DNA of 64,000 nucleotides from Escherichia coli (GTDB taxonomy: Bacteria; Pseudomonadota; Gammaproteobacteria; Enterobacterales; Enterobacteriaceae): NCBI RefSeq assembly GCF_011045215.1, contig NZ_CP049201.1; one strand, given 5' to 3'. A model generated the notes under the pieces. It worked only from the letters and a program-made list of their open reading frames with translations. It was not told the DNA's origin and searched no databases. Of this stretch, positions 1-29,204 are shown in pieces. How positions within the stretch are numbered: the stretch's first letter is position 1; the number at the start of each line of letters is the position of its first letter. The position numbers were made by a program, and so were the translations under genes.

Positions 1-1
1 T

Positions 2-784
2 ACCACCATTAATCCGGATACCAACGGCGATCTCTCCACGCTCGCCCAGCTTCTTTCCGGCTTTAGCGGTACGGCGGTTGGCGTGGTGAAAGGCGACTGG
101 ATGGCGCTGGTACAGGCGGTTAAAAACGACTCCAGCTCGAACGTTCTCTCCACGCCGAGCATCACCACGCTGGACAACCAGGAAGCCTTCTTCATGGTGG
201 GTCAGGACGTTCCGGTATTAACCGGCTCTACCGTTGGCTCCAATAACAGCAATCCTTTCAATACAGTAGAAAGGAAAAAAGTCGGCATCATGCTGAAAGT
301 CACGCCGCAGATTAACGAAGGTAACGCGGTACAGATGGTGATTGAGCAGGAAGTCTCGAAGGTGGAAGGACAGACCAGCCTCGACGTGGTGTTTGGTGAG
401 CGAAAACTGAAAACCACCGTGCTGGCTAACGATGGTGAACTGATTGTGCTTGGTGGTCTGATGGACGACCAGGCGGGAGAAAGTGTGGCGAAAGTGCCGC
501 TGCTTGGCGATATCCCATTGATTGGTAACCTGTTTAAATCGACGGCGGATAAAAAAGAAAAACGTAACCTGATGGTGTTTATCCGTCCGACCATTCTGCG
601 TGACGGTATGGCGGCAGACGGCGTGTCGCAGCGCAAATATAACTATATGCGCGCCGAACAGATCTATCGCGATGAGCAAGGCTTAAGCCTGATGCCGCAC
701 ACCGCGCAGCCGGTACTGCCAGCGCAAAACCAGGCCTTACCGCCGGAAGTACGTGCGTTCCTTAATGCCGGGAGAACGCGTTAA
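2..784 (+). CDS. gspD: Type II secretion secretin GspD, C-terminal part (5' end lies outside window)
   Basis: Open frame from window start with no stop; conserved secretin C-terminal motifs ([14 protein letters not shown]...); followed directly by gspE with overlapping stop/start. Confidence 0.85.
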
Positions 785-2277
785 TGGTGCCTGTAGCACA
801 GGAAACCACCGCCAACACCGTGCGTCTGCCCTACAGTTTCAGCCGTCGGTTTAGCCTGGTGGCATGGTGCGAAGCGTCGCTGGAGATCCTCCACGTTCAT
901 CCGTTGTCGCTCTCTGTTTTGCAGGAGCTGCAGCGGGGGCTGAACGCGCCCTTTACGCTGCGGCAAATCGACGAGGCCGAATTTGAACAGCGGCTGAATG
1001 CGGTCTGGCAGCGGGACTCTTCCGAGGCCCGCCAGCTGATGGAAGATCTCGGTTCTGCTGAGGACTTTTTTACTCTCGCTGAAGAACTGCCGGAAACGGA
1101 AGATCTGCTGGAAAGCGACGACGACGCGCCAATCATCAAACTGATCAACGCTATGCTGGCAGAGGCGATTAAAGAAGGCGCTTCGGATATTCACATCGAG
1201 ACATTTGAAAAGAGTCTGGTGATCCGTTTTCGTGTTGACGGCACATTACATGAAATGCTGCGCCCGGGGCGCAAACTGGCCTCGCTGCTGGTATCGCGTA
1301 TTAAGGTGATGGCGCGGCTGGATATTGCCGAAAAGCGCGTACCGCAGGATGGGCGTATTGCGCTGCTGCTGGGCGGTCGGGCGATTGACGTGCGTGTCTC
1401 CACCATGCCTTCTGCCTGGGGCGAGCGCGTGGTGCTGCGACTGCTGGACAAAAACCAGGCCCGCCTGACGCTGGAGCGTCTGGGGCTTAGCCAGCAACTG
1501 ACCGCGCAGTTGCGCCAGCTGTTACACAAACCGCACGGCATCTTTCTGGTGACGGGGCCGACGGGTTCCGGCAAAAGCACCACGCTGTACGCCGGATTGC
1601 AGGCGCTGAACAACCATTCGCGCAACATTCTCACGGTTGAAGACCCCATCGAATACATGATTGAAGGGATCGGTCAGACGCAGGTTAACACCCGCGTCGG
1701 CATGACCTTCGCCCGTGGCCTGCGCGCGATTTTGCGTCAGGACCCGGATGTGGTGATGGTCGGTGAAATCCGCGATACCGAAACCGCAGAAATTGCCGTC
1801 CAGGCATCGCTTACAGGGCACCTGGTCCTTTCCACGCTGCATACCAACACGGCGGTGGGGGCGATCACGCGTTTGCAGGATATGGGCGTGGAGCCTTTCC
1901 TGCTCTCTTCCAGTCTGACAGGTGTGATGGCGCAGCGGCTGGTTCGGACGCTGTGTCCCGACTGCCGTCAGGCCGCGCCTGCGACTGACGAAGAAAAACG
2001 CCTGCTGGGAATTACCGACGCCCGTACCGTCACTCTGTACCATCCACAGGGCTGTCCCGCCTGTAATCACAAAGGTTTTCGCGGACGGACTGCCATCCAT
2101 GAGCTGATCGTGGTGGATGCCACATTGCGTGATTTGATCCACCGTCAGGCCGGGGAGCTGGAGCTGGAACGTTATGTCCGACAACACTCTGCGGGTATCC
2201 GCAGTAACGGCATTGAGAAAGTGCTCGCCGGAGAAACCTCTCTCGATGAAGTTCTGCGGGTAACCATGGAGGCGTAA
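784..2277 (+). CDS. gspE: Type II secretion ATPase GspE
   Basis: 497 aa; Walker [10 protein letters not shown], GspE-type C-terminal CxxC pairs (CPDC...CPAC); operon position. Confidence 0.9.
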
Positions 2278-3500
2278 TGGCACTGTTTTACTATCAGGCG
2301 CTGGAGCGTAATGGTCGCAAAACCAAAGGTATGATTGAGGCGGATTCCGCGCGTCATGCCCGCCAGTTGTTGCGCGGTAAAGAGCTTATCCCCGTGCATA
2401 TTGAAGCCCGGATAAATACTTCGTCAGGGGGGATGTTGCAGCGTCGGCGGCACGCACATCGTCGCGTGGCGGCGGCAGATCTGGCGCTGTTCACGCGCCA
2501 ACTGGCAACGTTAGTACAGGCAGCAATGCCGCTGGAAACCTGCTTACAGGCGGTCAGTGAGCAAAGTGAAAAACTGCATGTAAAAAGCCTCGGAATGGCG
2601 CTGCGCAGCCGGATTCAGGAAGGTTACACCCTGTCGGACAGCCTGCGCGAACATCCCCGCGTCTTTGATTCCCTGTTTTGTTCGATGGTGGCTGCCGGAG
2701 AAAAATCCGGGCATCTCGACGTGGTGCTTAATCGCCTGGCGGATTACACCGAACAGCGACAGCGCCTGAAATCACGTCTATTGCAGGCCATGCTCTATCC
2801 GCTGGTTCTGCTGGTGGTGGCAACGGGCGTGGTCACTATTTTGCTGACGGCAGTGGTGCCGAAAATCATCGAACAGTTCGATCACCTCGGACACGCGCTG
2901 CCCGCCACCACCCGCGCGCTTATCGCCATGAGTGACACGTTACAGGACAGCGGCGTTTACTGGCTGGCGGGATTGCTGGGGCTTCTGGTGTTGGGGCAAC
3001 GGCTACTCAAAAATCCTGCGATGCGCCTGCGCTGGGATAAAACCTTGCTGCGCCTGCCTGTGACGGGGCGTGTTGCGCGCGGGCTGAATACGGCGCGTTT
3101 TTCCCGCACATTAAGCATCCTCACCGCCAGCAGTGTTCCGCTACTGGAAGGCATTCAGACCGCTGCCGCCGTGTCGGCAAATCGTTATGTCGAGCAACAA
3201 CTGCTGCTGGCGGCAGATCGCGTCCGCGAAGGAAGCAGTCTGCGCGCTGCGCTGGCGGAGTTGCGCCTGTTCCCCCCGATGATGCTGTACATGATCGCCT
3301 CCGGCGAACAGAGCGGCGAACTGGAAACCATGCTTGAACAGGCCGCAGTTAACCAGGAGCGGGAATTTGATACCCAGGTGGGGCTGGCGTTGGGGCTGTT
3401 TGAGCCGGCGCTGGTGGTGATGATGGCGGGCGTGGTGCTGTTTATCGTCATCGCCATCCTCGAGCCGATGCTGCAACTGAACAATATGGTTGGAATGTAA
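2277..3500 (+). CDS. gspF: Type II secretion inner-membrane platform protein GspF
   Basis: 407 aa, polytopic membrane protein with GspF-like duplicated domains; start overlaps gspE stop. Confidence 0.9.
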   Translation: MALFYYQALERNGRKTKGMIEADSARHARQLLRGKELIPVHIEARINTSSGGMLQRRRHAHRRVAAADLALFTRQLATLVQAAMPLETCLQAVSEQSEKLHVKSLGMALRSRIQEGYTLSDSLREHPRVFDSLFCSMVAAGEKSGHLDVVLNRLADYTEQRQRLKSRLLQAMLYPLVLLVVATGVVTILLTAVVPKIIEQFDHLGHALPATTRALIAMSDTLQDSGVYWLAGLLGLLVLGQRLLKNPAMRLRWDKTLLRLPVTGRVARGLNTARFSRTLSILTASSVPLLEGIQTAAAVSANRYVEQQLLLAADRVREGSSLRAALAELRLFPPMMLYMIASGEQSGELETMLEQAAVNQEREFDTQVGLALGLFEPALVVMMAGVVLFIVIAILEPMLQLNNMVGM

Positions 3501-3516
3501 TTTACGGAGTTATCAC

Positions 3517-3972
3517 ATGAATTCGTTATCCCGCACACAAAAACCACGGGCAGGTTTTACCCTGCTGGAAGTGATGGTGGTGATTGTTATTCTTGGCGTC
3601 CTGGCAAGTCTGGTGGTGCCTAACCTGTTGGGCAACAAAGAGAAAGCCGATCGGCAAAAAGCCATCAGCGATATCGTGGCGCTGGAAAACGCACTGGATA
3701 TGTACCGACTGGATAACGGGCGTTATCCGACCACAGAACAGGGGCTTGAGGCGCTGATCCAGCAACCGGCCAATATGGCGGATTCCCGCAACTACCGTAC
3801 CGGTGGGTACATTAAACGACTGCCAAAAGATCCGTGGGGCAATGATTATCAGTATCTCAGTCCGGGTGAAAAAGGACTGTTTGATGTTTACACCCTGGGG
3901 GCGGATGGTCAGGAAAATGGGGAAGGCGCTGGCGCAGATATCGGTAACTGGAATTTGCAGGAGTTTCAGTAA
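3517..3972 (+). CDS. gspG: Major pseudopilin GspG
   Basis: Prepilin leader and GFTLLEVMVV motif; ATG at 3517 with GGAG 8 nt upstream (ORF track begins at a TTG at 3490). Confidence 0.9.
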   Translation: MNSLSRTQKPRAGFTLLEVMVVIVILGVLASLVVPNLLGNKEKADRQKAISDIVALENALDMYRLDNGRYPTTEQGLEALIQQPANMADSRNYRTGGYIKRLPKDPWGNDYQYLSPGEKGLFDVYTLGADGQENGEGAGADIGNWNLQEFQ

Positions 3973-3975
3973 GCA

Positions 3976-4539
3976 GTGCCTGAACGCGGATTCACACTTC
4001 TGGAAATCATGCTGGTGATTTTCCTTATCGGCCTTGCCAGTGCGGGCGTGGTACAGACGTTTGCGACCGATTCTGAATCGCCCGCGAAAAAAGCGGCGCA
4101 GGATTTTCTGACTCGCTCTGCGCAGTTTAAAGACAGGGCAGTGATCGAAGGGCAGACACTCGGTGTACTAATCGACCCGCCGGGATACCAGTTTATGCAG
4201 CGTCGTCAGGGGCAGTGGTTGCCCGTTTCTGCGACCCGGTTATCGGCACAGGTTACGGTGCCGAAACAGGTGCAGATGCTGTTACAACCCGGAAGTGATA
4301 TCTGGCAGAAGGAATATACGCTGGAGCTGCAACGTCGCCGCCTGACGCTGCACGATATTGAACTGGAGCTGCAAAAAGAGGCGAAAAAGAAGACGCCGCA
4401 GATCCGTTTTTCGCCTTTTGAACCCGGTACGCCGTTTACGCTGCGCTTCTACTCGGCGGCGCAAAACGCATGTTGGGCGGTAAAACTGGCACACGATGGC
4501 GCGTTATCCCTCAATCAATGTGATGAGAGGATGCCATGA
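3976..4539 (+). CDS. gspH: Minor pseudopilin GspH
   Basis: GTG start; N-terminal GFTLLEIMLV prepilin motif; operon position. Confidence 0.8.
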   Translation: MPERGFTLLEIMLVIFLIGLASAGVVQTFATDSESPAKKAAQDFLTRSAQFKDRAVIEGQTLGVLIDPPGYQFMQRRQGQWLPVSATRLSAQVTVPKQVQMLLQPGSDIWQKEYTLELQRRRLTLHDIELELQKEAKKKTPQIRFSPFEPGTPFTLRFYSAAQNACWAVKLAHDGALSLNQCDERMP

Positions 4540-4907
4540 AGCGCGGATTTACCTTGCTGGAAGTGATGCTCGCGCTGGCGATTTTTGCGCTGGCTGCCAC
4601 GGCGGTGTTACAGATTGCCAGCGGTGCGCTGAGTAATCAGCACATTCTTGAGGAGAAAACGGTAGCTGGCTGGGTGGCTGAAAACCAGACCGCATTGCTC
4701 TACCTGATGTCCCGCGAGCAGCGGGCGGTCAGGCATCAGGGCGAGAGCGATATGGCAGGAAGCCGCTGGTACTGGCGAACCACACCGCTGAATACAGGTA
4801 ACGCGCTGCTCCAGGCGGTGGATATTGAAGTCAGCCGTCACGAAGACTTTTCGTCGGTGATTCAGTCACGACGCGCCTGGTTTAGCGCCGTGGGAGGCCA
4901 ACAGTGA
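4536..4907 (+). CDS. gspI: Minor pseudopilin GspI
   Basis: 123 aa, N-terminal GFTLLEVMLA prepilin motif; overlaps gspH stop. Confidence 0.8.
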   Translation: MKRGFTLLEVMLALAIFALAATAVLQIASGALSNQHILEEKTVAGWVAENQTALLYLMSREQRAVRHQGESDMAGSRWYWRTTPLNTGNALLQAVDIEVSRHEDFSSVIQSRRAWFSAVGGQQ

Positions 4908-5509
4908 GAAGGACTCGCGCTGGTTTCACGTTACTGGAAATGCTGGTGGCGATAGCCATTTTTGCCTCGCTGGCACTGATGGCTCAGCAGGTGACAAACG
5001 GCGTCACACGCGTGAATAGCGCCGTCGCCGGACACGATCAAAAACTAAACCTCATGCAGCAAACGATGAGTTTTCTGACCCACGATCTGACCCAAATGAT
5101 GCCGCGTCCGGTAAGGGGCGCTCAGGGCCAGCGTGAACCAGCGTTACTGGCGGGCGCTGGCGTGCTGGCGTCTGAGAGTGAAGGGATGCGCTTTGTACGC
5201 GGCGGCGTGGTTAATCCGTTGATGCGTCTGCCACGCAGTCATCTGCTCACCGTCGGTTACCGCATTCATGACGGTTATCTCGAACGGTTAGCCTGGCCGC
5301 TGACCGACGCAGCTGGCAGTGTGAAGCCAACAACGCAAAAGTTGATTCCGGCGGATTCGCTCCGTTTGCAGTTTTACGACGGCACGCGCTGGCAGGAGAA
5401 CTGGTCATCACTTCAGGCGATCCCAGTGGCGGTGCGCATGACCCTGCATTCGCCGCAATGGGGCGAGATTGAACGCATCTGGTTGTTACGCGGGCCGCAA
5501 TTATCATGA
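4904..5509 (+). CDS. gspJ: Minor pseudopilin GspJ
   Basis: 201 aa, N-terminal GFTLLEMLVA prepilin motif; translationally coupled to neighbours. Confidence 0.8.
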   Translation: MRRTRAGFTLLEMLVAIAIFASLALMAQQVTNGVTRVNSAVAGHDQKLNLMQQTMSFLTHDLTQMMPRPVRGAQGQREPALLAGAGVLASESEGMRFVRGGVVNPLMRLPRSHLLTVGYRIHDGYLERLAWPLTDAAGSVKPTTQKLIPADSLRLQFYDGTRWQENWSSLQAIPVAVRMTLHSPQWGEIERIWLLRGPQLS

Positions 5510-6483
5510 TCACCTCACCACCAAAACGCGGAATGGCACTGGTCGTGGTGCTGGTATTGCTGACGGTCATGATGATGGTAACCATCACGCTTTCCGGGCG
5601 GATGCAGCAACAACTTGGGCGAACGCGCAGCCAGCAGGAGTACCAGCAGGCGCTGTGGTACAGCGCCAGTGCAGAAAGCCTTGCGTTGAGCGCACTCAGT
5701 CTGAGCCTGAAAAATGAAAAGCGCGTGCATCTGGCACAACCGTGGGCTTCTGGCCCTCGTTTTTTCCCACTGCCGCAGGGGCAAATCGCCGTCACTCTGC
5801 GTGACGCACAGGCCTGCTTTAACCTGAATGCCCTCGCTCAGCCGACGACGGCGTCGCGTCCGCTCGCGTTACAACAATTGATTGCCCTGATCTCGCGCCT
5901 CGATGTGCCTGCTTATCGGGCCGAACTGATAGCCGAAAGCCTGTGGGAGTTTATTGATGAAGACCGCAGCGTGCAGACGCGTCTGGGCCGTGAAGACAGC
6001 GAATATCTCGCCCGCTCGGTGCCTTTCTACGCCGCCAATCAACCGCTGGCCGATATCAGCGAGATGCGCGTGGTGCAGGGAATGGACGCCGGGCTTTATC
6101 AAAAACTGAAACCGCTGGTCTGTGCGCTGCCGATGACCCGCCAGCAAATCAACATCAATACTTTAGACGTCACGCAAAGTGTGATTCTTGAGGCGCTGTT
6201 TGACCCGTGGTTAAGCCCTGTTCAGGCGCGGGCGTTATTACAACAACGTCCGGCGAAGGGCTGGGAAGATGTCGATCAGTTTCTTGCACAGCCGCTACTT
6301 GCTGACGTCGATGAGCGTACTAAAAAACAGCTAAAAACCGTCCTGAGCGTGGAAAGCAATTACTTCTGGCTGCGTTCAGATATCACCGTGAATGAGATTG
6401 AACTGACGATGAATTCGTTAATTGTCCGCATGGGCCCACAACACTTTTCTGTTATCTGGCATCAGACAGGAGAAAGTGAGTGA
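5506..6483 (+). CDS. gspK: Minor pseudopilin GspK
   Basis: 325 aa, N-terminal hydrophobic segment, size and position typical of GspK. Confidence 0.75.
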   Translation: MITSPPKRGMALVVVLVLLTVMMMVTITLSGRMQQQLGRTRSQQEYQQALWYSASAESLALSALSLSLKNEKRVHLAQPWASGPRFFPLPQGQIAVTLRDAQACFNLNALAQPTTASRPLALQQLIALISRLDVPAYRAELIAESLWEFIDEDRSVQTRLGREDSEYLARSVPFYAANQPLADISEMRVVQGMDAGLYQKLKPLVCALPMTRQQININTLDVTQSVILEALFDPWLSPVQARALLQQRPAKGWEDVDQFLAQPLLADVDERTKKQLKTVLSVESNYFWLRSDITVNEIELTMNSLIVRMGPQHFSVIWHQTGESE

Positions 6484-7658
6484 GTTCCATCCTTGAGATT
6501 TTTTTCCCACTTTGCGCCGCTAATCCCATCCGTTGGCAGCGCCGTACTCCCGACGTGGAGCACGGTATCTGGCCTGACGTTGCTGACGAACGTCTCCAAC
6601 AATGGCTGCAAACTGATGCGATTCGACTCTACATTCCCGGCGAATGGATCAGCATCTGGCAGGTTGAACTGCCTGATGTCCCTCGCAAGCAGATACCAAC
6701 TATTCTGCCCGCCTTACTGGAAGAAGAGCTGAACCAGGATATCGATGAACTGCATTTCGCCCCGTTGAAAATCGACCAGCAACTGGCAACCGTGGCAGTG
6801 ATTCACCAACAGCATATGCGCAACATTGCGCAGTGGTTGCAGGAAAACGGCATCACCCGCGCTACCGTCGCGCCAGACTGGATGTCTATTCCTTGTGGAT
6901 TTATGGCTGGCGATGCGCAACGGGTTATCTGCCGCATCGATGAATGCCGGGGATGGAGCGCCGGGCGGGCGCTGGCTCCGGTCATGTTCCGCGCCCAGCT
7001 AAATGAGCAGGATTTACCGCTTTCGCTAACCGTAGTCGGCATTGCACCGGAAGAGCTATCAGCATGGGCTGGCGCAGATGCTGAACGCCTGACCGTTACG
7101 GCTCTGCCCGCCATTACCACTTATGGCGAACCGGAAGGGAACCTGCTAACAGGGCCGTGGCAGCCTCGCGTCAGCTACCGAAAACAGTGGGCGCGCTGGC
7201 GAGTGATGATTCTGCCGATATTGCTGATTCTGGTTGCGCTGGCAGTGGAACGGGGCGTGACGTTATGGAGCGTCAGCGAACAGGTGGCGCAAAGCCGCGA
7301 CCAGGCTGAGAAACAGTTCTTAACGTTGTTCCCGGAGCAGAAGCGGATTGTGAATTTACGCTCTCAGGTGACGATGGCGCTGAAAAAATATCGCCCACAG
7401 GCCGACGATACCCGGCTGCTCGCCGAGTTGTCAGCGATAGCCAGCACCCTGAAATCAGCGTCACTTTCCGACATCGAAATGTGTGGTTTCACCTTTGATC
7501 AAAAACGCCAGACGCTTCACCTCCAGTTGCGGGCAGCAAACTTTGCCAGTTTCGACAAACTGCGTAGTGCACTGGCAACCGATTATGTTGTGCAACAGGA
7601 CGCGTTACAGAAAGAAGGTGATGCGGTTTCCGGCGGCGTAATGTTGCGGAGGAAATAA
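6480..7658 (+). CDS. gspL: Type II secretion protein GspL
   Basis: 392 aa, single central TM segment, position between gspK and gspM. Confidence 0.75.
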   Translation: MSSILEIFFPLCAANPIRWQRRTPDVEHGIWPDVADERLQQWLQTDAIRLYIPGEWISIWQVELPDVPRKQIPTILPALLEEELNQDIDELHFAPLKIDQQLATVAVIHQQHMRNIAQWLQENGITRATVAPDWMSIPCGFMAGDAQRVICRIDECRGWSAGRALAPVMFRAQLNEQDLPLSLTVVGIAPEELSAWAGADAERLTVTALPAITTYGEPEGNLLTGPWQPRVSYRKQWARWRVMILPILLILVALAVERGVTLWSVSEQVAQSRDQAEKQFLTLFPEQKRIVNLRSQVTMALKKYRPQADDTRLLAELSAIASTLKSASLSDIEMCGFTFDQKRQTLHLQLRAANFASFDKLRSALATDYVVQQDALQKEGDAVSGGVMLRRK

Positions 7659-7659
7659 C

Positions 7660-8196
7660 ATGTTACGCGATAAATTTATTCACTATTTTCAGCAATGGCG
7701 TGAACGCCAGTTAAGCCGTGGCGAACACTGGCTGGCACAACACCTGGCGGGGCGTTCTCCGCGTGAAAAGGGCATGTTACTGGCAGCGGTGGTGTTCCTG
7801 TTTAGCGTCGGATATTACGTCCTCATCTGGCAGCCGTTGAGCGAACGGATAGAACAACAGGAGACGATGTTGCAGCAGCTGGTGGCAATGAACACCCGAC
7901 TGAAGAACGCCGCGCCGGATATTATTGCAGCGCGAAAATCTGCCACAACAACGCCTGCGCAGGTATCGCGGGTCATCAGTGACAGTGCTTCCGCGCACTC
8001 GGTGGTCATCAGGCGGATAGCCGAGCGTGGGGAGAATATTCAGGTCTGGATAGAACCTGTGGTGTTTAATGACCTGCTGAAATGGTTAAACGCACTGGAT
8101 GAAAAATATGCGCTGCGGGTGACACAAATTGATGTCAGTGCTGCTGAGAAGCCTGGGATGGTGAATGTGCAGCGGCTGGAGTTTGGACGGGGGTAA
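7660..8196 (+). CDS. gspM: Type II secretion protein GspM (K-12 YghD-like)
   Basis: 178 aa, N-terminal TM helix, last gene of operon; sits 148 bp from the tRNA-Phe remnant, matching my recollection of the K-12 yghD-pheV spacing. Confidence 0.75.
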   Translation: MLRDKFIHYFQQWRERQLSRGEHWLAQHLAGRSPREKGMLLAAVVFLFSVGYYVLIWQPLSERIEQQETMLQQLVAMNTRLKNAAPDIIAARKSATTTPAQVSRVISDSASAHSVVIRRIAERGENIQVWIEPVVFNDLLKWLNALDEKYALRVTQIDVSAAEKPGMVNVQRLEFGRG

Positions 8197-21576: not shown

Positions 21577-22308
21577 ATGAATCAACCAATACACAATGCT
21601 TACTGGTTATCCCGTTTTGAAAGTATTCTCAACAGTGACCTGGTGCAACACCTTGCCGTTTCGTTAATCCGGGTGGATTTACGTTTCCCTGAGTATATGC
21701 CTGCCAGCATCATGGATACCGATTTAGATTCAGCGGTGATTTCTCGTTTTTTCGAATCCCTGAAAGCCAAAATCCAGGCTTACCAGCGGAAAAAACGACG
21801 TGCCAACAAGCGTGTGCGTGCAACCACTCTGCGTTATTTCTGGTGTCGGGAGTTCGGCAAGATGTATGGCAGGAAACATTATCACGTGATATTACTGCTC
21901 AACAAAGATACCTGGTGCTCGCTCGGGGATTTCAGCGAACCATCTTCGCTGGCGACGCTGATCCAGCTGGCATGGTGCAGCGCTCTGCATCTTGAGCCCT
22001 GGCAGGGTAATGGACTGGTTCATTTTTCCAGGCGGACTTCTTTCCGTCAACCGACTTCATCTGATGCTCCCCCTTCTTCCGATGATACGCCTTTGCCAGG
22101 TGGATGCTCTGATACCAGGAAGGCTTCTGACAAAAAATCTGGTGGATCCGCTGTACTCTGGGTCACGCGTGGTGATGTGGAAGCGGTACAGAAAGCCATG
22201 GAGAGAGCCCTTTATCTCGTGAAGTATGAGACGAAGCAGCATGACGGTTCAGGTCAACGTAATTATGGTTGCAGTCGTGGGGCGGGGCGTCTACTGGATG
22301 GCAGGTGA
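21577..22308 (+). CDS. YagK/YfjJ-family protein (inovirus Gp2-like by recollection), paralog 1
   Basis: 243 aa; shares block pattern with the three ORFs at 26673, 27467 and 28641 (R.DL.FP..., HYH.hLL..., ALYL.KY). Confidence 0.55.
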   Translation: MNQPIHNAYWLSRFESILNSDLVQHLAVSLIRVDLRFPEYMPASIMDTDLDSAVISRFFESLKAKIQAYQRKKRRANKRVRATTLRYFWCREFGKMYGRKHYHVILLLNKDTWCSLGDFSEPSSLATLIQLAWCSALHLEPWQGNGLVHFSRRTSFRQPTSSDAPPSSDDTPLPGGCSDTRKASDKKSGGSAVLWVTRGDVEAVQKAMERALYLVKYETKQHDGSGQRNYGCSRGAGRLLDGR

Positions 22309-23478: not shown

Positions 23479-25083
23479 ATGAATCCTGCTTATATGCAAG
23501 CCTTGCAGATATCCCCCCACTTCCCCGCCAATATAACCAGGCGATTATTTCCTGGTGAGCTTGCATTCCTCATTGAAGACTTATATGCAAGTACCCAACT
23601 TCCGCTGGAGCTCATTTTTAATACTGTACTGGCAACGCTCTCACTCTCCTGTCAGTCACTGGTTGACGTTGTTCATCCTCACACCAACATGCCGGAACCC
23701 TGCTCACTTTATCTGTTGGCAATCGCAGAGCCAGGCGCGGGAAAAACAACGATAAACAGACTGGTGATGAACCCCTGTTACGAATTTGCTGATCGACTCA
23801 TTCAACAATACGAAGAGAGAAACAAAGATTATAAGACTGAACTACAGATCTGGAATACCCGGCAGAAAGCGCTTGCTGCCAATTTAAGAAAGGCTGTTAA
23901 CCGGGGGTATCCGGGGGAACAGGAAGAAGAGGCACTGCGTAATCACGAAAGAAATAAACCGACACGTCCGGTTCGACCGAATTTTATCTATGAAGATGTT
24001 TCGCTTAAAGCGCTTGTGGAAGGGCTCAATGAACATCCTGAGGTAGGGGTTATTTCTGATGAGGCGGTCACTTTTTTCAGAAGCTATCTGAAAAATTATC
24101 CGGGCCTGTTGAATAAAGCATGGAGTGGGCAACCGTTTGATTTTGGACGGGCTGACGAGAAATACCATATCACGCCACGACTGACATTTTCGTTAATGTC
24201 CCAGCCGGATGTCTTTACGAATTATATAAATAAAAATGACGTACTGGCGTGGGGAAGCGGATTTCTTTCCCGGTTTCTGTTCAGTCAGGTTGTAAGTTCT
24301 TCCTGGATACGTGATTATACGAGAGGCGAGTTCAGAACAATACCAACCCTGGAGAAATTTCATAAAAAGATTAACGGATTTCTGTTAAGCCATAACATTA
24401 ATTCCCCCGGCACGAGCACCGAAAGGAAGACATTAAAACTTGCGAAAAAAGCGTTGGGGGAGTGGCAGGAAAACCAGATTAAGATTGAAAGAAAAACGCT
24501 TGCAGGAGGGGAGTGGGAACACATCAGAGATATTGTGCTGAAAGCAGGTTCTAATATACTGAGGATAGCGGGTTTATTCACCTGCTATTGCTATAAAGAT
24601 GCTGAGGAAATTGAATCAATTGCGCTTTTTAAAGCTATGCATCTCATGGACTGGTATCTGGAGGAAGCGAGCACAATATTTTATCCCATGTCTGAACGAT
24701 GCCAGTTTGAACAGGATAGCCGTGAGCTGTATACATGGATTATGACCCGAATCAGACAGAATAACTGGTGTGCTATCAGGAAAACAGACATTGAAAGATA
24801 TGGTCCCAATCGTCTGAGAAGAGCAGAAAAACTTACACCTGTGCTCAATCAGTTAATCTGTCAGGGGTATTTATGTATCATCAGAATGCGAACGCATCAG
24901 ACACTTTATGTTTCTGTTCGTTATAATAATGGTTGCATCCCTCCTTTTGGCGCAATGTCTTACGAATCATTTGAGATTATTCCACCCGAGAATAGCCATA
25001 ATGCGAAAACATATCACGTTAATATTCCACCGGAATTAATTCCGCCATTTGCGTTACCTTTTTCAACCCATGGCTTATTTTGA
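23479..25083 (+). CDS. YfjI-like P-loop protein (DUF3987-like)
   Basis: 534 aa; Walker A AEPGAGKT; AGGAGG RBS upstream; integrase-proximal module gene in CP4-57-like islands. Confidence 0.55.
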   Translation: MNPAYMQALQISPHFPANITRRLFPGELAFLIEDLYASTQLPLELIFNTVLATLSLSCQSLVDVVHPHTNMPEPCSLYLLAIAEPGAGKTTINRLVMNPCYEFADRLIQQYEERNKDYKTELQIWNTRQKALAANLRKAVNRGYPGEQEEEALRNHERNKPTRPVRPNFIYEDVSLKALVEGLNEHPEVGVISDEAVTFFRSYLKNYPGLLNKAWSGQPFDFGRADEKYHITPRLTFSLMSQPDVFTNYINKNDVLAWGSGFLSRFLFSQVVSSSWIRDYTRGEFRTIPTLEKFHKKINGFLLSHNINSPGTSTERKTLKLAKKALGEWQENQIKIERKTLAGGEWEHIRDIVLKAGSNILRIAGLFTCYCYKDAEEIESIALFKAMHLMDWYLEEASTIFYPMSERCQFEQDSRELYTWIMTRIRQNNWCAIRKTDIERYGPNRLRRAEKLTPVLNQLICQGYLCIIRMRTHQTLYVSVRYNNGCIPPFGAMSYESFEIIPPENSHNAKTYHVNIPPELIPPFALPFSTHGLF

Positions 25084-26672
25084 AATAAACTAACACAGAT
25101 AAAACGAAAAAAATCAACCTTCATTCGAAGGTTGGTGGTAAGGCGTTTTGCATATCCCGCATCTGTGCAAATGTTCACCATCTATGGGGCATGAACGAAA
25201 ATTTCTCTGAAAAAATCGCTACGGTAGCAACAGTAGCAGCACATGCACTATATATGTGATTTGATTTTGTTTTCATAATGACCTGCTGTCAGAGTTGGTT
25301 GAATACAGGAGTGTGCGCACTGGTGGAAGAATGGCTTTCGTTTTTTATAAAAAGAAAGTGAACAGAAATGCTATTTTTAACATGTCTGAAGCTAATCATA
25401 TAACCATATTATGTGAGTTTTTATATATAACTTTTTTTGATTCTTGTCGTGATGAGTGCCGGCGTATATGACGATGTTGGTCTCTATTATGAATAATGAA
25501 TGGTTATCAGTCTGTTACTGGCAAGAGATGCTGTTCAGGTTTCAATGGGAGATTGAAGAAAAACGATTTGATCTTTTTCTGTAAGAGAATGTTTTTCTTA
25601 GGCTTGTATTCAGGACGTAGGATTTCTTATTTTTACTCATCAGATATGGATAATTTTAATTTAGGTTTATTACTATAATTAATATCTGTCTCTTTATTTT
25701 CTATCCATCTTTGTCATTCATCTCTCCTCTCTATCTTTACACATTCCATTACTATTATTTTCATCCAGTTATACTCACTCATGTCCTTCTCCAGTCTTCA
25801 CTGTCACTATTATAACAATATCCTCTCCATCCATATCTCAATCATGACGATTGTAACTCATATGATATTCAGGTGTATTCTCTACCATTCTACTGACAGA
25901 TATTCATCTGTTCTCATGTTCAGTGAGACAGTAATTGATTTTAATCTTGTCCGTCATGCGTTATCATTGTTTAACAATAATTGTTTATCTGAAGTGTTTT
26001 AACTATTCTGGTGAACATCAATTCTTCTGTCATCACTGATTAACTGAATGTTTACTCTTTGATAAGGTGTCTATGATTCCGTCATGTTTAACAGCGCAGG
26101 ATAAACAATGAAATTAACAGGGTGAATTCCTGATTATGTCTGTTCGTTTCTGATTATCTTTTATGTTAAACAAAATGAAAATTATCCATCAATGGTATGT
26201 TTCATTCTGGTACCGTGTACCCGTTAACGTTCATATCTTGAACATGAGTTGTTTTTAACAGATTAAATGAGAGTGTATGATTTTATCAGGTTACAGATAT
26301 GTGTTGGCCTTGTACACGTTTTTTCAGACTCACTGAGAGCAAGTTTGTAGTTTATGATGTTATTGGTCGTAATATGTTTCTTAATCTCCTGGTAGTGGGG
26401 GTTTATTGCGTATTTTGCAGTGTTTCATTGTGTTTTATTGAATCTGTATTTTTTTACTCCTCGTTTATCTCATTTCTTTAGTCAATGCCATCAGATGACC
26501 CATTCCCTTCAGCACAACGTTGCGTGTCGTTAATAACCGACGTATCCATTCTGTTACAGCATGCCTGATAAATACCGTCTGTAAGTTATTACCGTTTTAG
26601 ATCTGATTATGAGCGAAAGCATTAATTCGCTTACAGCACTTAAAACGTCATTAACTTTCAGGAGTCATCAGC

Positions 26673-27239
26673 ATGCCTAAATCTTACACACCAAACTGGT
26701 TTTTTACCGCTTTATTTGACAATCACATCAATCAAATGATAGCACGCTATTCCTGCCTGCGGGCCTTACGCATGGATTTCTTCTACAGGAAAGATACGCC
26801 TGATTTCTTACAACCTGATCATCGCTGGCTTGAATTACAGTTGCGTATGCTACTGGAGCAGGTGGAACAATTTGAAAATATCGTTGGCTTCTTCTGGGTG
26901 ATTGAATGGACGGCTGATCATGGTTTTCATGCGCATGCGGTTTTCTGGATCGATCGTCAGAGGGTTAAAAAAATATATCCCTTTGCGGAGCGGATTACGG
27001 AATGCTGGCGGTCTATTACGCATAACTGTGGTTCGGTGCACCGTTGTACATATCAGCCGCATTATGCATACAACATCAACATCCCCGTGCGCCATAACGA
27101 TCCTGAAAGCATCGATAATATTCGAGGTGTCCTGCATTATCTGGCGAAAGAAGAGCAAAAAGACGGACTGTGCGCATACGGTTGCAGTGAAGTTCCTGAA
27201 CGACCTGCTGCAGGGCGTCCTCGTAAGCCTCACTTCTGA
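26673..27239 (+). CDS. YagK/YfjJ-family protein, paralog 2
   Basis: 188 aa; motif blocks shared with the other paralogs; AGGAG RBS. Confidence 0.55.
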   Translation: MPKSYTPNWFFTALFDNHINQMIARYSCLRALRMDFFYRKDTPDFLQPDHRWLELQLRMLLEQVEQFENIVGFFWVIEWTADHGFHAHAVFWIDRQRVKKIYPFAERITECWRSITHNCGSVHRCTYQPHYAYNINIPVRHNDPESIDNIRGVLHYLAKEEQKDGLCAYGCSEVPERPAAGRPRKPHF

Positions 27240-27466
27240 AACTTAAATCCTGAGCTTCCTGTCCTGGAAACATTCCGTCGGTAAAACCTTACCACCTTGC
27301 TTAATGATGTGAACTGAAGTCAACGGAGATCATTCACTCTGAACCACATCCGGTGTTCTGTCCCTTGTCGGTGACCTGATCTTCCCGTTCTGCTTCGGTT
27401 CTTCACTTATTCCATCAACCCCATCCGCAAGCTATAACACGTCAGCTCATTCACGGGCAGGACGCA

Positions 27467-28072
27467 TTGTGGGCTGCGCATAACGGAGCATATCTTATGA
27501 ATGCTATTCCTTATTTCGACTATAGCCTGGCACCCTTCTGGCCATCTTATCAGAGCAAAGTTATCGGCGTCCTTGAGCGTGCGCTACGTGAGCAGTCCGG
27601 CTCCCGGATACGGCGGATCCTGCTTCGTCTACCGTGTGAATATGACAGTACCTTCAGCAGCAGAAAGACCTGGTTTGGTATGGATTTTATCGAAACCGTC
27701 AGTGCGCTGATGAATGCAACACCCGGACGTGACCTCTGCTGGCTCCTGACCCGTCATCCTGAAAAACCGGAATACCACGTGGTGCTGTGCGTCAGACAGG
27801 AGTATTTCGATGGCCCTGAGCTGGATCGGTTGATTCTGGATGCCTGGAGTAACGTGCTGGGCTTCGCGTCACCAGGTGAAGCAAAGCCGTACCAGAAGCA
27901 GATCACCCGGGATGTGGTACTGGATCGCCGGTCACCGGACTGCGAAGCCCTGTTTAAAGACCTTATCTGGGCGTTCAGTGATTTCGCCCGCGCTCGTCGT
28001 GATGTGTGCGATCCGGAAGCCCGTTGCCTCGCCGGTAATCCCGGGTATCCCGGATCTGCAGGGCCGTTCTGA
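27467..28072 (+). CDS. YagK/YfjJ-family protein, paralog 3
   Basis: 201 aa; shared motif blocks (LLRLPCEY..., YHVVLCVRQEYF). Confidence 0.5.
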   Translation: MWAAHNGAYLMNAIPYFDYSLAPFWPSYQSKVIGVLERALREQSGSRIRRILLRLPCEYDSTFSSRKTWFGMDFIETVSALMNATPGRDLCWLLTRHPEKPEYHVVLCVRQEYFDGPELDRLILDAWSNVLGFASPGEAKPYQKQITRDVVLDRRSPDCEALFKDLIWAFSDFARARRDVCDPEARCLAGNPGYPGSAGPF

Positions 28073-28140: not shown

Positions 28141-28374
28141 ATGTTGACCACAATAAGCCACGACAGCGTGTTGCTGCGTGCCGACGATCCCCTGATCGAC
28201 ATGAACTACATCACCAGTTTCACCGGCATGACCGATAAATGGTTTTACAGGCTGATCAGTGAAGGCCATTTTCCTAAACCCATCAAACTGGGTCGCAGCA
28301 GCCGCTGGTACAAAAGCGAAGTGGAGCAGTGGATGCAGCAGCGAATCGAAGAATCACGAGGGTCAGCAGCATGA
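28141..28374 (+). CDS. alpA: AlpA-family phage/island transcriptional regulator
   Basis: Small HTH protein with the AlpA-like C-terminal W..E.E.W motif; alternative start at 28201. Confidence 0.7.
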   Translation: MLTTISHDSVLLRADDPLIDMNYITSFTGMTDKWFYRLISEGHFPKPIKLGRSSRWYKSEVEQWMQQRIEESRGSAA

Positions 28375-28640: not shown

Positions 28641-29204
28641 GTGCAAATAACCGAAGTATTACTTTCAGAGCCGGGAGACATCCGGCGTTTTGTTCAGCAG
28701 GCGGTGGACCACTGGCCGCGTCTGCTGGCAGTCCACTTCACGCTCCATTCGGCTGAAGGAAACATCAACGGACAACAGGTTCAGACATTCTGTACTTCCT
28801 TTTACCGACAGGTACACGAACGTATTACTGAACGTAATCACACGGTCAGTCCATCATCGCCGATGGTATTACGCTGGCTGCGGGAACAACATGGAGGAGC
28901 AACAATACGATGCCTGTTGCTGCTCAGTCAGACGAGCATTTGCCATCCGCGAGCCAGTGCCACGGTTGATGAAGAATGTTCGCAACTGGTGGATTTACTA
29001 CAACAGACCTGGCGGGTGATAAGTACTGGTGGACAATGCCGGGGGGAAAGGTGTTTTATGGTTGTCCGGCCTGATACATCAGGCCAGTATGATGCGTTAA
29101 AAACAACGGCGATGTGTTTTACATCACCGGTGATGTCCACCACAATCCGGTGTGGCGTTACCGGCGATGATGACGAAACATTACGGCGCAGAGCGCTTTT
29201 CTGA
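28641..29204 (+). CDS. YagK/YfjJ-family protein, paralog 4
   Basis: 187 aa, GTG start; shared motif blocks (AVHFTLHSAEG..., IRCLLLLSQT). Confidence 0.5.
   Translation: MQITEVLLSEPGDIRRFVQQAVDHWPRLLAVHFTLHSAEGNINGQQVQTFCTSFYRQVHERITERNHTVSPSSPMVLRWLREQHGGATIRCLLLLSQTSICHPRASATVDEECSQLVDLLQQTWRVISTGGQCRGERCFMVVRPDTSGQYDALKTTAMCFTSPVMSTTIRCGVTGDDDETLRRRALF

Follow-up and report, generated by a model that had tools for sequence, protein, structure and literature searches.

The 1.6-kb gap between a yfjI-like gene and a YagK/YfjJ-like gene in an Escherichia coli genomic island was analyzed within a 64-kb stretch of DNA (contig NZ_CP049201.1), hereafter the window, and it is a conserved, gene-linked control region and not a dead gene. 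Taken as a whole, it is an ordinary island regulatory spacer with a few notable conserved pieces. In the reading that we favor, to which we give a probability of about one half, the 3′ ~1.0 kb represents the control region and long untranslated leader of an H-NS/Rho-silenced operon encoding a Rep-like protein and an AlpA-family regulator, while the 5′ part carries a small minus-strand transcript. The features on which this reading draws are listed in Table 1.

Table 1. Features of the spacer and the adjoining gene, in coordinates of the window.
Feature	Position	Strand	Basis or remark
Whole AT-rich, ORF-poor spacer	25084..26672	.	Between the yfjI-like gene and the YagK/YfjJ-like gene
Terminator-like hairpin CAACCTTC-GAAT-GAAGGTTG (25134-25115), then T7	25105..25134	-	Hairpin/terminator scan
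Conserved ~200-nt core of the yfjI-linked half	25140..25345	-	Homologue alignment, RNA fold
Palindrome/hairpin CTTTC(G)...(C)GAAAG	25335..25358	.	Alignment; stem conserved, loop clade-specific
Conserved AT block, core TTTTAATTTAGGTTTATTACTATAATTA (25654-25681)	25644..25698	+	Left edge of the widespread part
G-poor pyrimidine tract, rut-like composition	25684..25905	+	Composition; hypervariable among homologues
AT-rich middle of the putative leader	25906..26545	+	Weakly constrained; some natural variants do without it
Inverted degenerate copy of the left part of the AT block (19/22)	26168..26189	-	Overlaps promoter-like TTTTCA-17-GATAAT, 26181-26153
Most conserved proximal block CCATTCTG(Y)TACAGCATGCCTGATAAATACC(R)TCTGTAAGTTATTACC	26546..26593	+	41 distinct sequences
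23-codon upstream ORF (MSESINSLTALKTSLTFRSHQHA)	26609..26680	+	Read from sequence; stop overlaps the YagK-like ATG
YagK/YfjJ-like gene (inovirus Gp2/HUH Rep-like), putatively served by the leader	26673..27239	+	Pfam, motifs

The spacer is bounded on the left by an ORF of the DUF3987/YfjI family (23479-25083; Pfam E 3e-73) and on the right by the 188-aa YagK/YfjJ-like ORF. Its GC content in 200-nt windows is 0.30-0.40 across 25100-26600, compared with 0.42-0.52 in the flanking genes, and A/T tracts of at least 4 nt are denser than in the window overall (20 vs 12.8 per kb). Equally AT-rich kilobase bins are present elsewhere in the window, at 19-21, 39-40, and 43-44 kb. The longest ORF of the spacer encodes only 73 aa (25781-26002, + strand), and no minus-strand ORF of at least 30 aa was detected between 25640 and 26672. 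These results confirm the initial annotation, which had described an AT-rich gap of 1.6 kb with only short ORFs between a YfjI-like gene and a YfjJ paralog, and had placed TC-rich runs at 25680-25900, where the tract indeed consists of 69% pyrimidine and 7% G.

Homologues of the spacer were identified in 1566 of 5426 E. coli genomes (~29%), 329 of which contain it at full length, and their distribution reveals two parts. E. coli C5 is one carrier of the element (NZ_CP010122.1, 5213923-5215514). The 5′ ~550 nt were found solely alongside the yfjI-like gene (332/5426 genomes), and the 3′ ~1030 nt (about 25640-26672) are present in all 1566. The 3′ part always lies directly upstream of a module of YagK (188 aa), a hypothetical protein, AlpA, and a YagK-like protein, regardless of the gene further upstream, which may be yfjI, dsdA, a sugar kinase, IS fragments, or an H-NS paralogue. 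Among E. coli plasmids, spacer sequence was present in only 12, with nothing annotated beneath it. No similarity to the spacer was found in 50,697 phage records, and the AT block had no match among viral contigs.

The spacer is non-coding, without detectable coding potential. A six-frame Pfam scan identified no family and gave only two chance-level matches (E 0.006 and 0.012), and tblastn of 11 neighbouring island proteins against a database of the 1.6-kb spacer returned noise (best E 0.04). Among the genomes listed, no RefSeq gene or pseudogene lies beneath the spacer match, except for an IS5 insertion and one 41-aa call. A heavily decayed protein gene, such as a former YagK paralogue between the AT block and the present gene, would find room in the ~800 nt from the TC tract to the gene, which could accommodate a ~190-aa gene and a spacer, and the island does contain several YagK paralogues, one of them degenerate. 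However, the YagK paralogues have no tblastn match in the spacer down to E 50, the indels among aligned homologues (1, 2, 4, 13, 14, and 22 nt) are not multiples of three, and the translated spacer ORFs are either absent from the protein collection or found only in a 6-member 'hypothetical' cluster. Together with the missing Pfam families and RefSeq pseudogenes, these observations make a decayed gene extremely improbable. The initial annotation had raised this option and proposed a comparison with E. coli island proteins; the Pfam, tblastn, phage, annotation, and indel evidence all speak against it, and clear homology to a known intact coding gene, which it had named as contrary evidence, was sought and not found.

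The YagK-like protein that follows the spacer contains HAH and Y-L-A-K (YLAK) motifs, so that an HUH-type initiator gene adjoins the region. Both of its Pfam scores lie just below the curated cut-offs, namely REP_ORF2-G2P (E 2e-5, 25.1 bits vs 27.8) and YagK_YfjJ_C (E 8e-5, 23.0 bits vs 25.8), and RefSeq names its homologues 'inovirus-type Gp2 protein'. Identities at the three codon positions of the gene are 0.96-0.995, 0.97-0.995, and 0.88-0.97, which indicate purifying selection. The AlpA-family gene of the module is located at 28141-28374, 1.5 kb downstream (Pfam Phage_AlpA E 1e-10). A literature search for YagK/YfjJ proteins or their upstream region found no functional study. A YagK-like gene of Budvicia is likewise preceded by ~1.3 kb of AT-rich sequence without ORFs of at least 80 aa.

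The left edge of the 3′ part is marked by the AT block, of which 25654-25683 are near-invariant in 14 E. coli loci picked without regard to it. In each of six independent upstream contexts, the breakpoint falls in a ~60-nt span immediately to the left of the block. Conservation extends across genera, as 29 nt of the block are 84-93% identical in six non-E. coli loci, assigned to Citrobacter, Enterobacter, Salmonella diarizonae, Mixta, and a MAG labelled Bacillota, where they lie ~148 nt upstream of YagK-like genes whose proteins are ~50% identical. In metagenome loci that contain the block and enough downstream sequence, a YagK-like gene follows on the same strand in 69 of 72, at a distance of 642-1066 nt (median 970) in the E. 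coli class and 145-154 nt in a short class. Invariance of the block in this metagenome set is partly by construction, as the search pattern required it, and the unbiased estimates are those from the 14-locus E. coli alignment and the other-genus loci. The E. coli version appears to be an expanded leader, because the relatives in other genera pack the same block and a pyrimidine leader into ~148 nt.

Promoter-like hexamers within the AT block comprise TGGATA (25647-52), TACTAT (25671-76), and a perfect TATAAT (25674-79) without a -35. The block resembles a sigma-70 promoter whose spacer is conserved and could bind a regulator. In a relaxed hexamer scan, TGGATA-18-TACTAT matches the consensus at 4/6 + 4/6 positions, a score of 8/12; numerous other sites scored just as weakly, which is to be expected in AT-rich DNA. 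A stricter consensus scan called no promoter on the + strand, neither within the block nor close to the YagK-like gene. The short-leader class has GTGAAA-16-TAATAT at the equivalent place. The sequence TTAATTTAGGTT, which would be the spacer of the putative promoter, is near-invariant.

The AT block occurs once in the window and, by nhmmer, once per locus, with no extra diverged copies upstream of other YagK paralogues. An element upstream of the first YagK gene in L021 resembles it by eye only. The inverted copy of its left part was matched equally well in inverted orientation in only 1 of 100 dinucleotide shuffles and is present in window-type variants only. A MITE bounded by the 22-nt inverted repeat was also considered; a target-site duplication was not seen, and the right arm is variant-specific. 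We rejected an attachment site or island end, since the block is single-copy in the window and the upstream breakpoints are spread over ~60 nt and are not precise.

Adjoining the AT block is the pyrimidine tract, whose 222 nt comprise A53, C61, G15, and T93 (69% pyrimidine, 27% C, 6.8% G), with a GC skew of -0.61 at 25700-25899. Its (C-G)/80 nt value peaks at 0.30, which ranks at the 99.9th percentile when every 80-nt window from the two strands of the 64 kb is considered, and values of at least 0.25 occur in only three + strand regions. RNA folding predicts the tract to be essentially unpaired in both the MFE and centroid structures. Its sequence is only 60-75% identical among homologues, with many indels, and some strains contain a 9-nt VNTR, as in L008 with (TCCACCTTC)x8.3. 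A C-rich, G-poor leader is nevertheless present at the equivalent place in the short-leader relatives and upstream of the second YagK gene in L021. The tract thus has the composition expected of a Rho-dependent attenuator, that is, at least ~80 nt of C-rich, G-poor, predicted unstructured RNA on the putative transcribed strand.

Apart from the AT block, strong conservation within the 3′ part is limited to the last ~130 nt. The proximal block is invariant or nearly so in 41 distinct sequences and is kept in deletion variants, and the last 100 nt of the spacer are 92-99% identical. This segment contains an AGGAG Shine-Dalgarno sequence (26660-26664) ahead of the YagK-like gene and the 23-codon upstream ORF, which has no family match and is intact in most of the 41 sequences; the exceptions are one with an internal stop, one without the ATG, and one that has lost the stop. 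The AT-rich middle evolves at 74-97% identity; the adjacent gene shows a similar 81-88% at its four-fold sites. A 350-nt stretch (26194-26543) is deleted in L082, L108, and L134, and the leader of NZ_CP063369.1 contains an IS5 about 200 nt upstream of the ATG. Because these insertions and deletions are tolerated, much of the leader length may be functionless.

This pattern raises the possibility that the region is mostly functionless filler, in which only the ~130 nt by the gene (promoter, Shine-Dalgarno sequence, and upstream ORF) matter, the remainder is mosaic debris of inter-island recombination, and an older promoter left the AT block as a relic. Such a view would accommodate the divergence near the synonymous rate, the range of leader lengths, the tolerated deletions, IS5, and VNTR, the mosaic tracts of identity among leader homologues, and the whole-leader RNA fold, which is not unusually structured (z -1.16). 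A relic, however, would not remain near-invariant beside hypervariable sequence, nor would it keep 84-93% identity to genera whose YagK proteins are ~50% identical, and the six upstream contexts would not be expected to break so close to its left side. Moreover, the deletion bias of bacteria should have purged a useless 1 kb, yet the 3′ part persists in 1566 genomes. We therefore consider filler rather unlikely as an account of the whole region.

Under the preferred reading of a silenced leader, the 3′ ~1.0 kb would act as the upstream control region, and probably as the long untranslated leader, of an operon encoding the YagK/YfjJ-type HUH Rep-like protein, a degenerate paralogue, and the AlpA-family regulator. 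Four sections may be distinguished: the AT block would provide a sigma-70-like promoter, with a possible regulator site in its spacer; the G-poor, C/U-rich, unstructured tract resembles a Rho loading (rut) site in composition; some 600 nt of AT-rich sequence may be filler in near-neutral evolution; and the conserved ~130-nt proximal segment would supply the Shine-Dalgarno sequence and the short overlapping upstream ORF. We infer from this arrangement a transcription start at the promoter-like sequence and a region that keeps the island operon silent, in which the AT-rich DNA would be covered by H-NS, transcription of the C-rich leader would be cut short by Rho, and read-through might need an island factor such as AlpA. 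A 5′ UTR of ~985 nt would be unusually long, which speaks against a leader of this kind, and the conserved proximal block could instead harbor the true promoter, with the distal AT block being something else.

AT-rich foreign DNA is generally a target of H-NS. The H-NS-bound silencer suggested in the initial annotation is plausible because of this general knowledge and the composition of the spacer, as a GC content of 0.30-0.40 over 1.5 kb, in a window of ~0.50, is in the range of H-NS-silenced xenogeneic DNA. The high-affinity H-NS motif TCGATAAATT has no exact copy in the spacer, where the best matches are 8/10 (TGGATAATTT at 25647 on the + strand and 26179 on the - strand). The best matches to the RfaH ops element GGCGGTAGnnTG have two mismatches, and none lies in the leader in sense orientation. 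AlpA-family proteins of E. coli are better known as activators or excisionase-like factors, and to our knowledge antitermination has been shown for none of them.

The 5′ ~550 nt form the 3′ flank of the yfjI-like gene. A minus-strand hairpin with a T-run sits 32 nt beyond the stop codon of this gene, and its stem is retained in all clades. L103 has a single compensatory double change (CAACC/GGTTG to CAATC/GATTG), the loop is flipped in the L004 clade, and the variant of the L002 clade pairs only on the + strand (U-G, versus a C-A mismatch). In the adjacent core, 5-9 columns per 30 nt are variable at about 25190-25340, compared with 12-20 in the flanks further right. The core folds with a z of -2.57, and three pairs of its consensus fold show compensatory change. 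At its right end, the loop of the second hairpin differs by clade, with TTTTTTATAAAAA in the window, TTTTTTATTGAT among L002-clade members, and TTTCAGATATAA among those of the L004 clade. The 5′ part thus probably carries a candidate small minus-strand transcript that would end at the hairpin and T-run at 25134-25105. With respect to the small RNA that the initial annotation had thought possible, a known family is not supported, as a search with the Rfam 15 covariance models gave no match at E <= 1 on either strand of the spacer and blastn did not find Esr41 in the window; the 5′ core with its minus-strand terminator-like hairpin remains as one candidate.

The core also contains a 33-codon minus-strand ORF (25276-25175), which is open in 17 of 18 distinct homologues and was considered as a putative type I toxin or small membrane protein. 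Its variable columns number 10, 7, and 8 at codon positions 1, 2, and 3, a distribution without coding signature; the hydrophobic stretch of the product is only ~15 residues long, the product has no NCBIfam match, and the exact 33-aa peptide is missing from a set of 15 billion proteins.

A broader proposal is that the spacer encodes non-coding RNAs and is not a leader at all. These might be an antisense or convergent pair across the TC tract, with the + strand transcript starting from the AT block and the minus-strand transcript from the inverted copy (26189-26153), or else a small minus-strand RNA or peptide within 25105-25345. The former could draw on the minus-strand promoter-like site of the inverted copy, but its hexamers vary between variants and are not conserved. 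The latter could draw on the compensatory change in the terminator, the fold and covarying pairs of the core, and the open ORF, but covariation is sparse, the ORF has no third-position bias, and Rfam offers no match. We regard this replacement of the leader by non-coding RNAs as unlikely.

The proximity of the AT block to a Rep-like gene raises the further question of whether the adjacent HUH Rep-like YagK uses it as an origin or nick site (dso or oriT), with the spacer as an origin region comparable to that upstream of gene II in filamentous phages. The HUH and YxxK motifs and weak Rep_ORF2-G2P/inovirus Gp2 similarity of the YagK-like proteins would fit, as would the constant position of the block upstream of their genes. 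In the short-leader class, a 7-bp GC-rich inverted repeat, GGGAGTG...CACTCCC, encloses the block as its loop (DNA fold -8.2 kcal/mol, z -2.93), and in the window it has a different flanking stem, CAGATAT/ATATCTG (z -2.08). However, the hairpin is absent in many E. coli variants (L004 type, z +0.59), the stem variants in 21 short-leader sequences are wobble or disruptive and never compensatory, and neither a conserved, covariation-supported hairpin nor iteron families were found. We know of no HUH nick sequence to which the AT block bears evident resemblance. A P4-type origin, with TGTTCACC iterons by the DUF3987 gene, was rejected, as these repeats are not enriched (two in the spacer; four in the window vs 2.7 expected). 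One spacer copy of TGTTCACC is part of a small conserved hairpin. An origin is thus a very doubtful explanation of the block. Equally speculative is a combined scheme in which the block, as shared across Enterobacterales ahead of YagK/YfjJ genes, is a nick or origin site for the uncharacterised HUH Rep-like proteins that they encode and the island AlpA gates their expression through the silenced leader; if it held, the common YagK-AlpA module of E. coli would be a latent rolling-circle replication or mobilisation unit.

Among complete E. coli genomes, about 29% contain the YagK/YfjJ-AlpA module with its ~1-kb unannotated upstream region, often more than once. The control region, the cross-genus cis element at its 5′ edge, and the rut-like tract offer starting points for the study of silencing and switching of island genes; if the mechanism is ordinary H-NS/Rho silencing, the value lies chiefly in better annotation.

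Several known systems resemble parts of this region. Esr41-type Hfq-binding sRNAs of E. coli islands (SpLE1/OI-43; PMC5286369, PMC8565820) share the intergenic island location and a hairpin with poly-U terminator, here on the minus strand (25134-25105), but the Esr41 sequence is not in the window, and the present candidate, a putative transcript without Rfam match, is linked to a yfjI-like gene. The intergenic origin of Ff phages upstream of gene II, like the dso of rolling-circle plasmids upstream of rep, is a non-coding AT-rich region adjoining an inovirus Gp2/HUH Rep-type gene, with an AT-rich core within an inverted repeat, as in some versions of the spacer only. In contrast to these origins, most E. 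coli versions have not kept the hairpin, covariation and iterons are lacking, the element is chromosomal, and the literature search found no functional study that would assign YagK/YfjJ proteins a role in replication.

Rho anchors on C-rich RNA and works with H-NS to silence AT-rich foreign DNA (PMC6797219). The spacer lacks an exact nucleation motif and has a hypervariable tract, in which it differs from the H-NS/Rho-silenced regulatory regions of acquired islands, and our comparison is at the level of sequence; it resembles them as foreign island DNA of 30-40% GC in a ~50% GC genome, with a long ORF-free upstream region and, in the sense orientation of the downstream operon, an unstructured tract rich in C and poor in G. 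Antiterminator loading sites provide the closing parallel. AlpA of Pseudomonas aeruginosa has a loading element (ABE) between -35 and -10, after which RNA polymerase bypasses downstream terminators (PMC7969949, PMC9371919). Although its motif GGGACGN5GGTA (PMC7969949) is absent from the AT block and the promoter here is putative, the region shares with this site and with the QBE of lambda Q a conserved sequence in a promoter-like spacer, a long leader with terminator-like and rut-like features behind the element, and an AlpA-family gene in the same module.

The spacer between the yfjI-like gene and the YagK/YfjJ-like gene (window 25084-26672) has a GC content of 0.30-0.40 versus 0.42-0.52 in the flanking genes (200-nt windows), and its longest ORF is 73 aa. 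Its pyrimidine tract (25684-25905) contains 15 G in 222 nt, is 69% pyrimidine and has a C-over-G excess at the 99.9th percentile when every 80-nt window of the 64-kb window is ranked, both strands included. The initial annotation was therefore correct in describing an AT-rich region with a pyrimidine-rich tract and only short ORFs. The island has several further patches of comparable AT-richness. A second C-rich, G-poor tract is located on the + strand at 27374-27454, directly 5' of the next module gene (27467-28072), and is among only three + strand regions of the window with (C-G)/80 of at least 0.25.

The suggestion that the spacer is a decayed gene found no support. Six-frame translations match no Pfam family beyond chance, tblastn of eleven proteins from this and related islands returned only noise, and indel lengths among spacer homologues are not multiples of three. 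In the listed RefSeq records, the only annotation under the spacer match is an IS5 insertion and a single hypothetical call of 41 aa. No phage similarity was identified in 50,697 phage records, and only 12 plasmids carry spacer sequence, none with annotation under the match.

Sequence homologous to the spacer was identified in 1566 of 5426 complete E. coli genomes. The whole 1.6-kb spacer is present in only 329 genomes, every time with the yfjI-like gene, and the remaining ~1240 have only ~25630-26672 in common with it. In all loci examined, this 3' part lies directly 5' of one module, which comprises a YagK/YfjJ-like gene (188 aa), a ~190-aa hypothetical protein, an AlpA-family HTH protein and usually a further YagK-like gene. 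Because the module is constant and the gene beyond the 3' part varies (yfjI, dsdA, a sugar kinase, IS fragments or an H-NS paralogue), the 3' ~1 kb belongs to the YagK-AlpA module and not to yfjI. The yfjI-yfjJ gap of E. coli K-12 is only ~150 nt and unrelated to the spacer. Several islands have an H-NS-family paralogue ~1.4 kb 5' of the YagK-like gene (L009 2120-2560, L010 1241-1681, L014 1146-1586), with IS fragments between it and the conserved AT block at the left edge of the 3' part. The best spacer match in RefSeq complete genomes is 96.7% (strain C5); window 1-8000 carries gsp type II secretion genes with identity to E. coli of up to 99.2%.

The 201-aa 'hypothetical' protein of the module (27467-28072) is very remotely related to YagK/YfjJ: it shares 19.7% identity with K-12 YfjJ (E 1.6e-4) and has a single His of the HUH motif. 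RefSeq homologues of the 187-aa ORF at 28641-29204 are named YagK/YfjJ-domain proteins, and no Pfam model matched it. Counting the 243-aa copy at 21577, the island has up to four YagK/YfjJ paralogues.

Features of the spacer, its flanks and a homologous locus
Feature	Position	Strand	Remarks
DUF3987/YfjI-family ORF	23479-25083		left flank of spacer; Pfam E 3e-73
Hairpin	25115-25134		followed by T7 on minus strand only
33-codon ORF	25276-25175	minus	open in 17/18 distinct sequences
AT block	25654-25681		near-invariant, left edge of 3' part; TTTTAATTTAGG(T/C)TTATTACTAT(A/T)ATTA
23-codon upstream ORF	26609-26680		overlaps YagK ATG; mostly intact in distinct sequences compared
YagK/YfjJ-like ORF, 188 aa	26673-27239		right flank of spacer
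IS5-family element	L143 (NZ_CP063369.1) 2123-3091		in spacer

The 5' part (25084-25640) was found in 332 genomes, every time with the yfjI-like gene. Compared with locus L002, that gene has 91% amino-acid and 94.7% nucleotide identity, and its near-equal identities at codon positions 1, 2 and 3 (0.948/0.957/0.936) suggest relaxed constraint; its last ~100 nt are far more divergent than the remainder, which points to a recombination breakpoint. Among 17 distinct homologues of the 5' part, 5-9 of 30 columns are variable at ~25190-25340 versus 12-20 in flanks further right. Every clade retains the hairpin stem, in which one clean compensatory change occurs alongside a flipped loop; for a variant in one clade, pairing is better on the + strand. 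Of 200 shuffles, 199 fold less well than the minus-strand RNA, three covarying pairs are present in the consensus fold, and the 33-codon ORF shows no third-position bias or family match. The 5' part is a reasonable candidate source of a small convergent transcript, the only place where the small RNA of the initial annotation retains a candidate; the spacer has no Rfam match at E <= 1, and the EHEC island sRNA Esr41 (query from the supplement of PMC5286369) is absent from the window.

Sections of the 3' part, or putative leader, were delimited by aligning 14 loci. To the left of the AT block, six different upstream contexts break off, all within ~60 nt. The pyrimidine tract is hypervariable in this alignment (60-75% identity, many indels); in the UPEC locus L008 it contains a perfect 9-nt tandem array, (TCCACCTTC)x8.3, at 3159-3233 (~window 25825), and the otherwise identical L005 has about two copies, indicating a VNTR in the leader. 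Identity in the middle ~600 nt is 74-97%, comparable to that of four-fold degenerate sites in the adjacent YagK gene (81-88%), whose codon positions 1 and 2 are 96-99.5% identical. The last ~130 nt are 92-99% identical, with an essentially invariant 48-nt stretch at 26546-26593 (41 distinct sequences) and AGGAG 8 nt 5' of the YagK ATG. Either 26194-26543 or most of the pyrimidine tract is missing from natural variants, and two genomes, both poultry isolates, have an IS5-family insertion ~200 nt 5' of the YagK ATG with the YagK gene intact. Such tolerated disruptions and near-neutral drift support functionless filler, in which most of the leader length may be idle and only the proximal 130 nt functional, although the conserved AT block and the persistence of 1 kb across 1566 genomes speak against it.

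A protein-anchored scan with one genome per species revealed loci with ~50%-identical YagK-like proteins, assigned to Citrobacter, Enterobacter, Salmonella enterica subsp. diarizonae, Mixta and one MAG labelled Bacillota. Their sole DNA similarity to the spacer is a 29-nt copy of the AT block, 84-93% identical. In this short class the AT block lies ~148 nt 5' of the YagK-like gene, is bracketed by a 7-bp inverted repeat (GGGAGTG...CACTCCC) and precedes a C-rich, G-poor leader; many E. coli versions can still be seen to share the first bases of this leader, CACTCCCTTTTTAC.... In the Enterobacter locus, a second YagK gene shows a looser form of this layout. A distant Budvicia relative lacks the block; the ~1.3 kb 5' of its YagK-like gene are likewise AT-rich and contain no ORFs of at least 80 aa. 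On the Bacillota-labelled contig (L017, JAEWTL010000095.1), the YagK locus with the AT block is of Enterobacterales type, and the label probably reflects misbinning or contamination.

In metagenome contigs, a pattern search recovered 120 loci with the AT block; its invariance there is built into the search pattern, the unbiased evidence being the 14-locus alignment and the other-genus loci. A YagK-like gene follows on the same strand in 69 of the 72 metagenome loci having at least 1.7 kb downstream. Block and gene are 642-1066 nt apart (median 970) in the E. coli class; for the short class the figure is 145-154 nt.

The HUH and YxxK motifs of YagK-like proteins make the AT block a possible origin or nick site for them. 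Hairpin folding is significant in the short class (z -2.93), and the stem flanking the window block is a different one (z -2.08); however, the hairpin is absent from many E. coli versions (z +0.59), stem variants are never compensatory, and iterons were not found. Converging transcripts may also form an RNA pair in this window, where 26168-26189 repeats the block's left part in inverted, degenerate form (19/22; 1 of 100 shuffles as good) and is overlapped by a minus-strand promoter-like site at 26153-26181, but this copy is confined to variants of the window type. In L082, L108 and L134, the natural deletion begins at 26194, right after the copy.

The 3' part is most likely a promoter or operator of the YagK-AlpA module, the AT block, with an expanded and silenced leader after it. 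What is observed is the composition, the linkage and the conservation; where transcription starts, and whether H-NS, Rho or AlpA act there, is inferred. A perfect TATAAT is present within the block at 25674-79, overlapped by TGGATA-18-TACTAT, and the short class has GTGAAA-16-TAATAT at the equivalent place. Because a strict consensus promoter scan made no call at the block, its assignment as a promoter is tentative. If it is one, the transcript would start with ~220 nt of C/U-rich, G-poor RNA that is predicted to be unpaired; the whole leader RNA is not unusually structured (z -1.16). Rho prefers such unstructured RNA and works with H-NS to silence AT-rich foreign DNA (PMC6797219), and both might act here; the H-NS silencer of the initial annotation is plausible, though generic.

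A promoter at the AT block would also place the conserved sequence in the spacer between the hexamers, the position at which processive antiterminators such as lambda Q and P. aeruginosa AlpA are loaded (PMC7969949; PMC9371919). The module includes an AlpA-family gene, whose product might have a role at the leader. The published AlpA motif is absent, and the likeness is therefore one of analogy and not of membership. The spacer is an unannotated, new example of a familiar type of island regulatory spacer, and the main gain is the assignment of its 3' kilobase to the YagK-AlpA module, with a cross-genus cis element at its edge.
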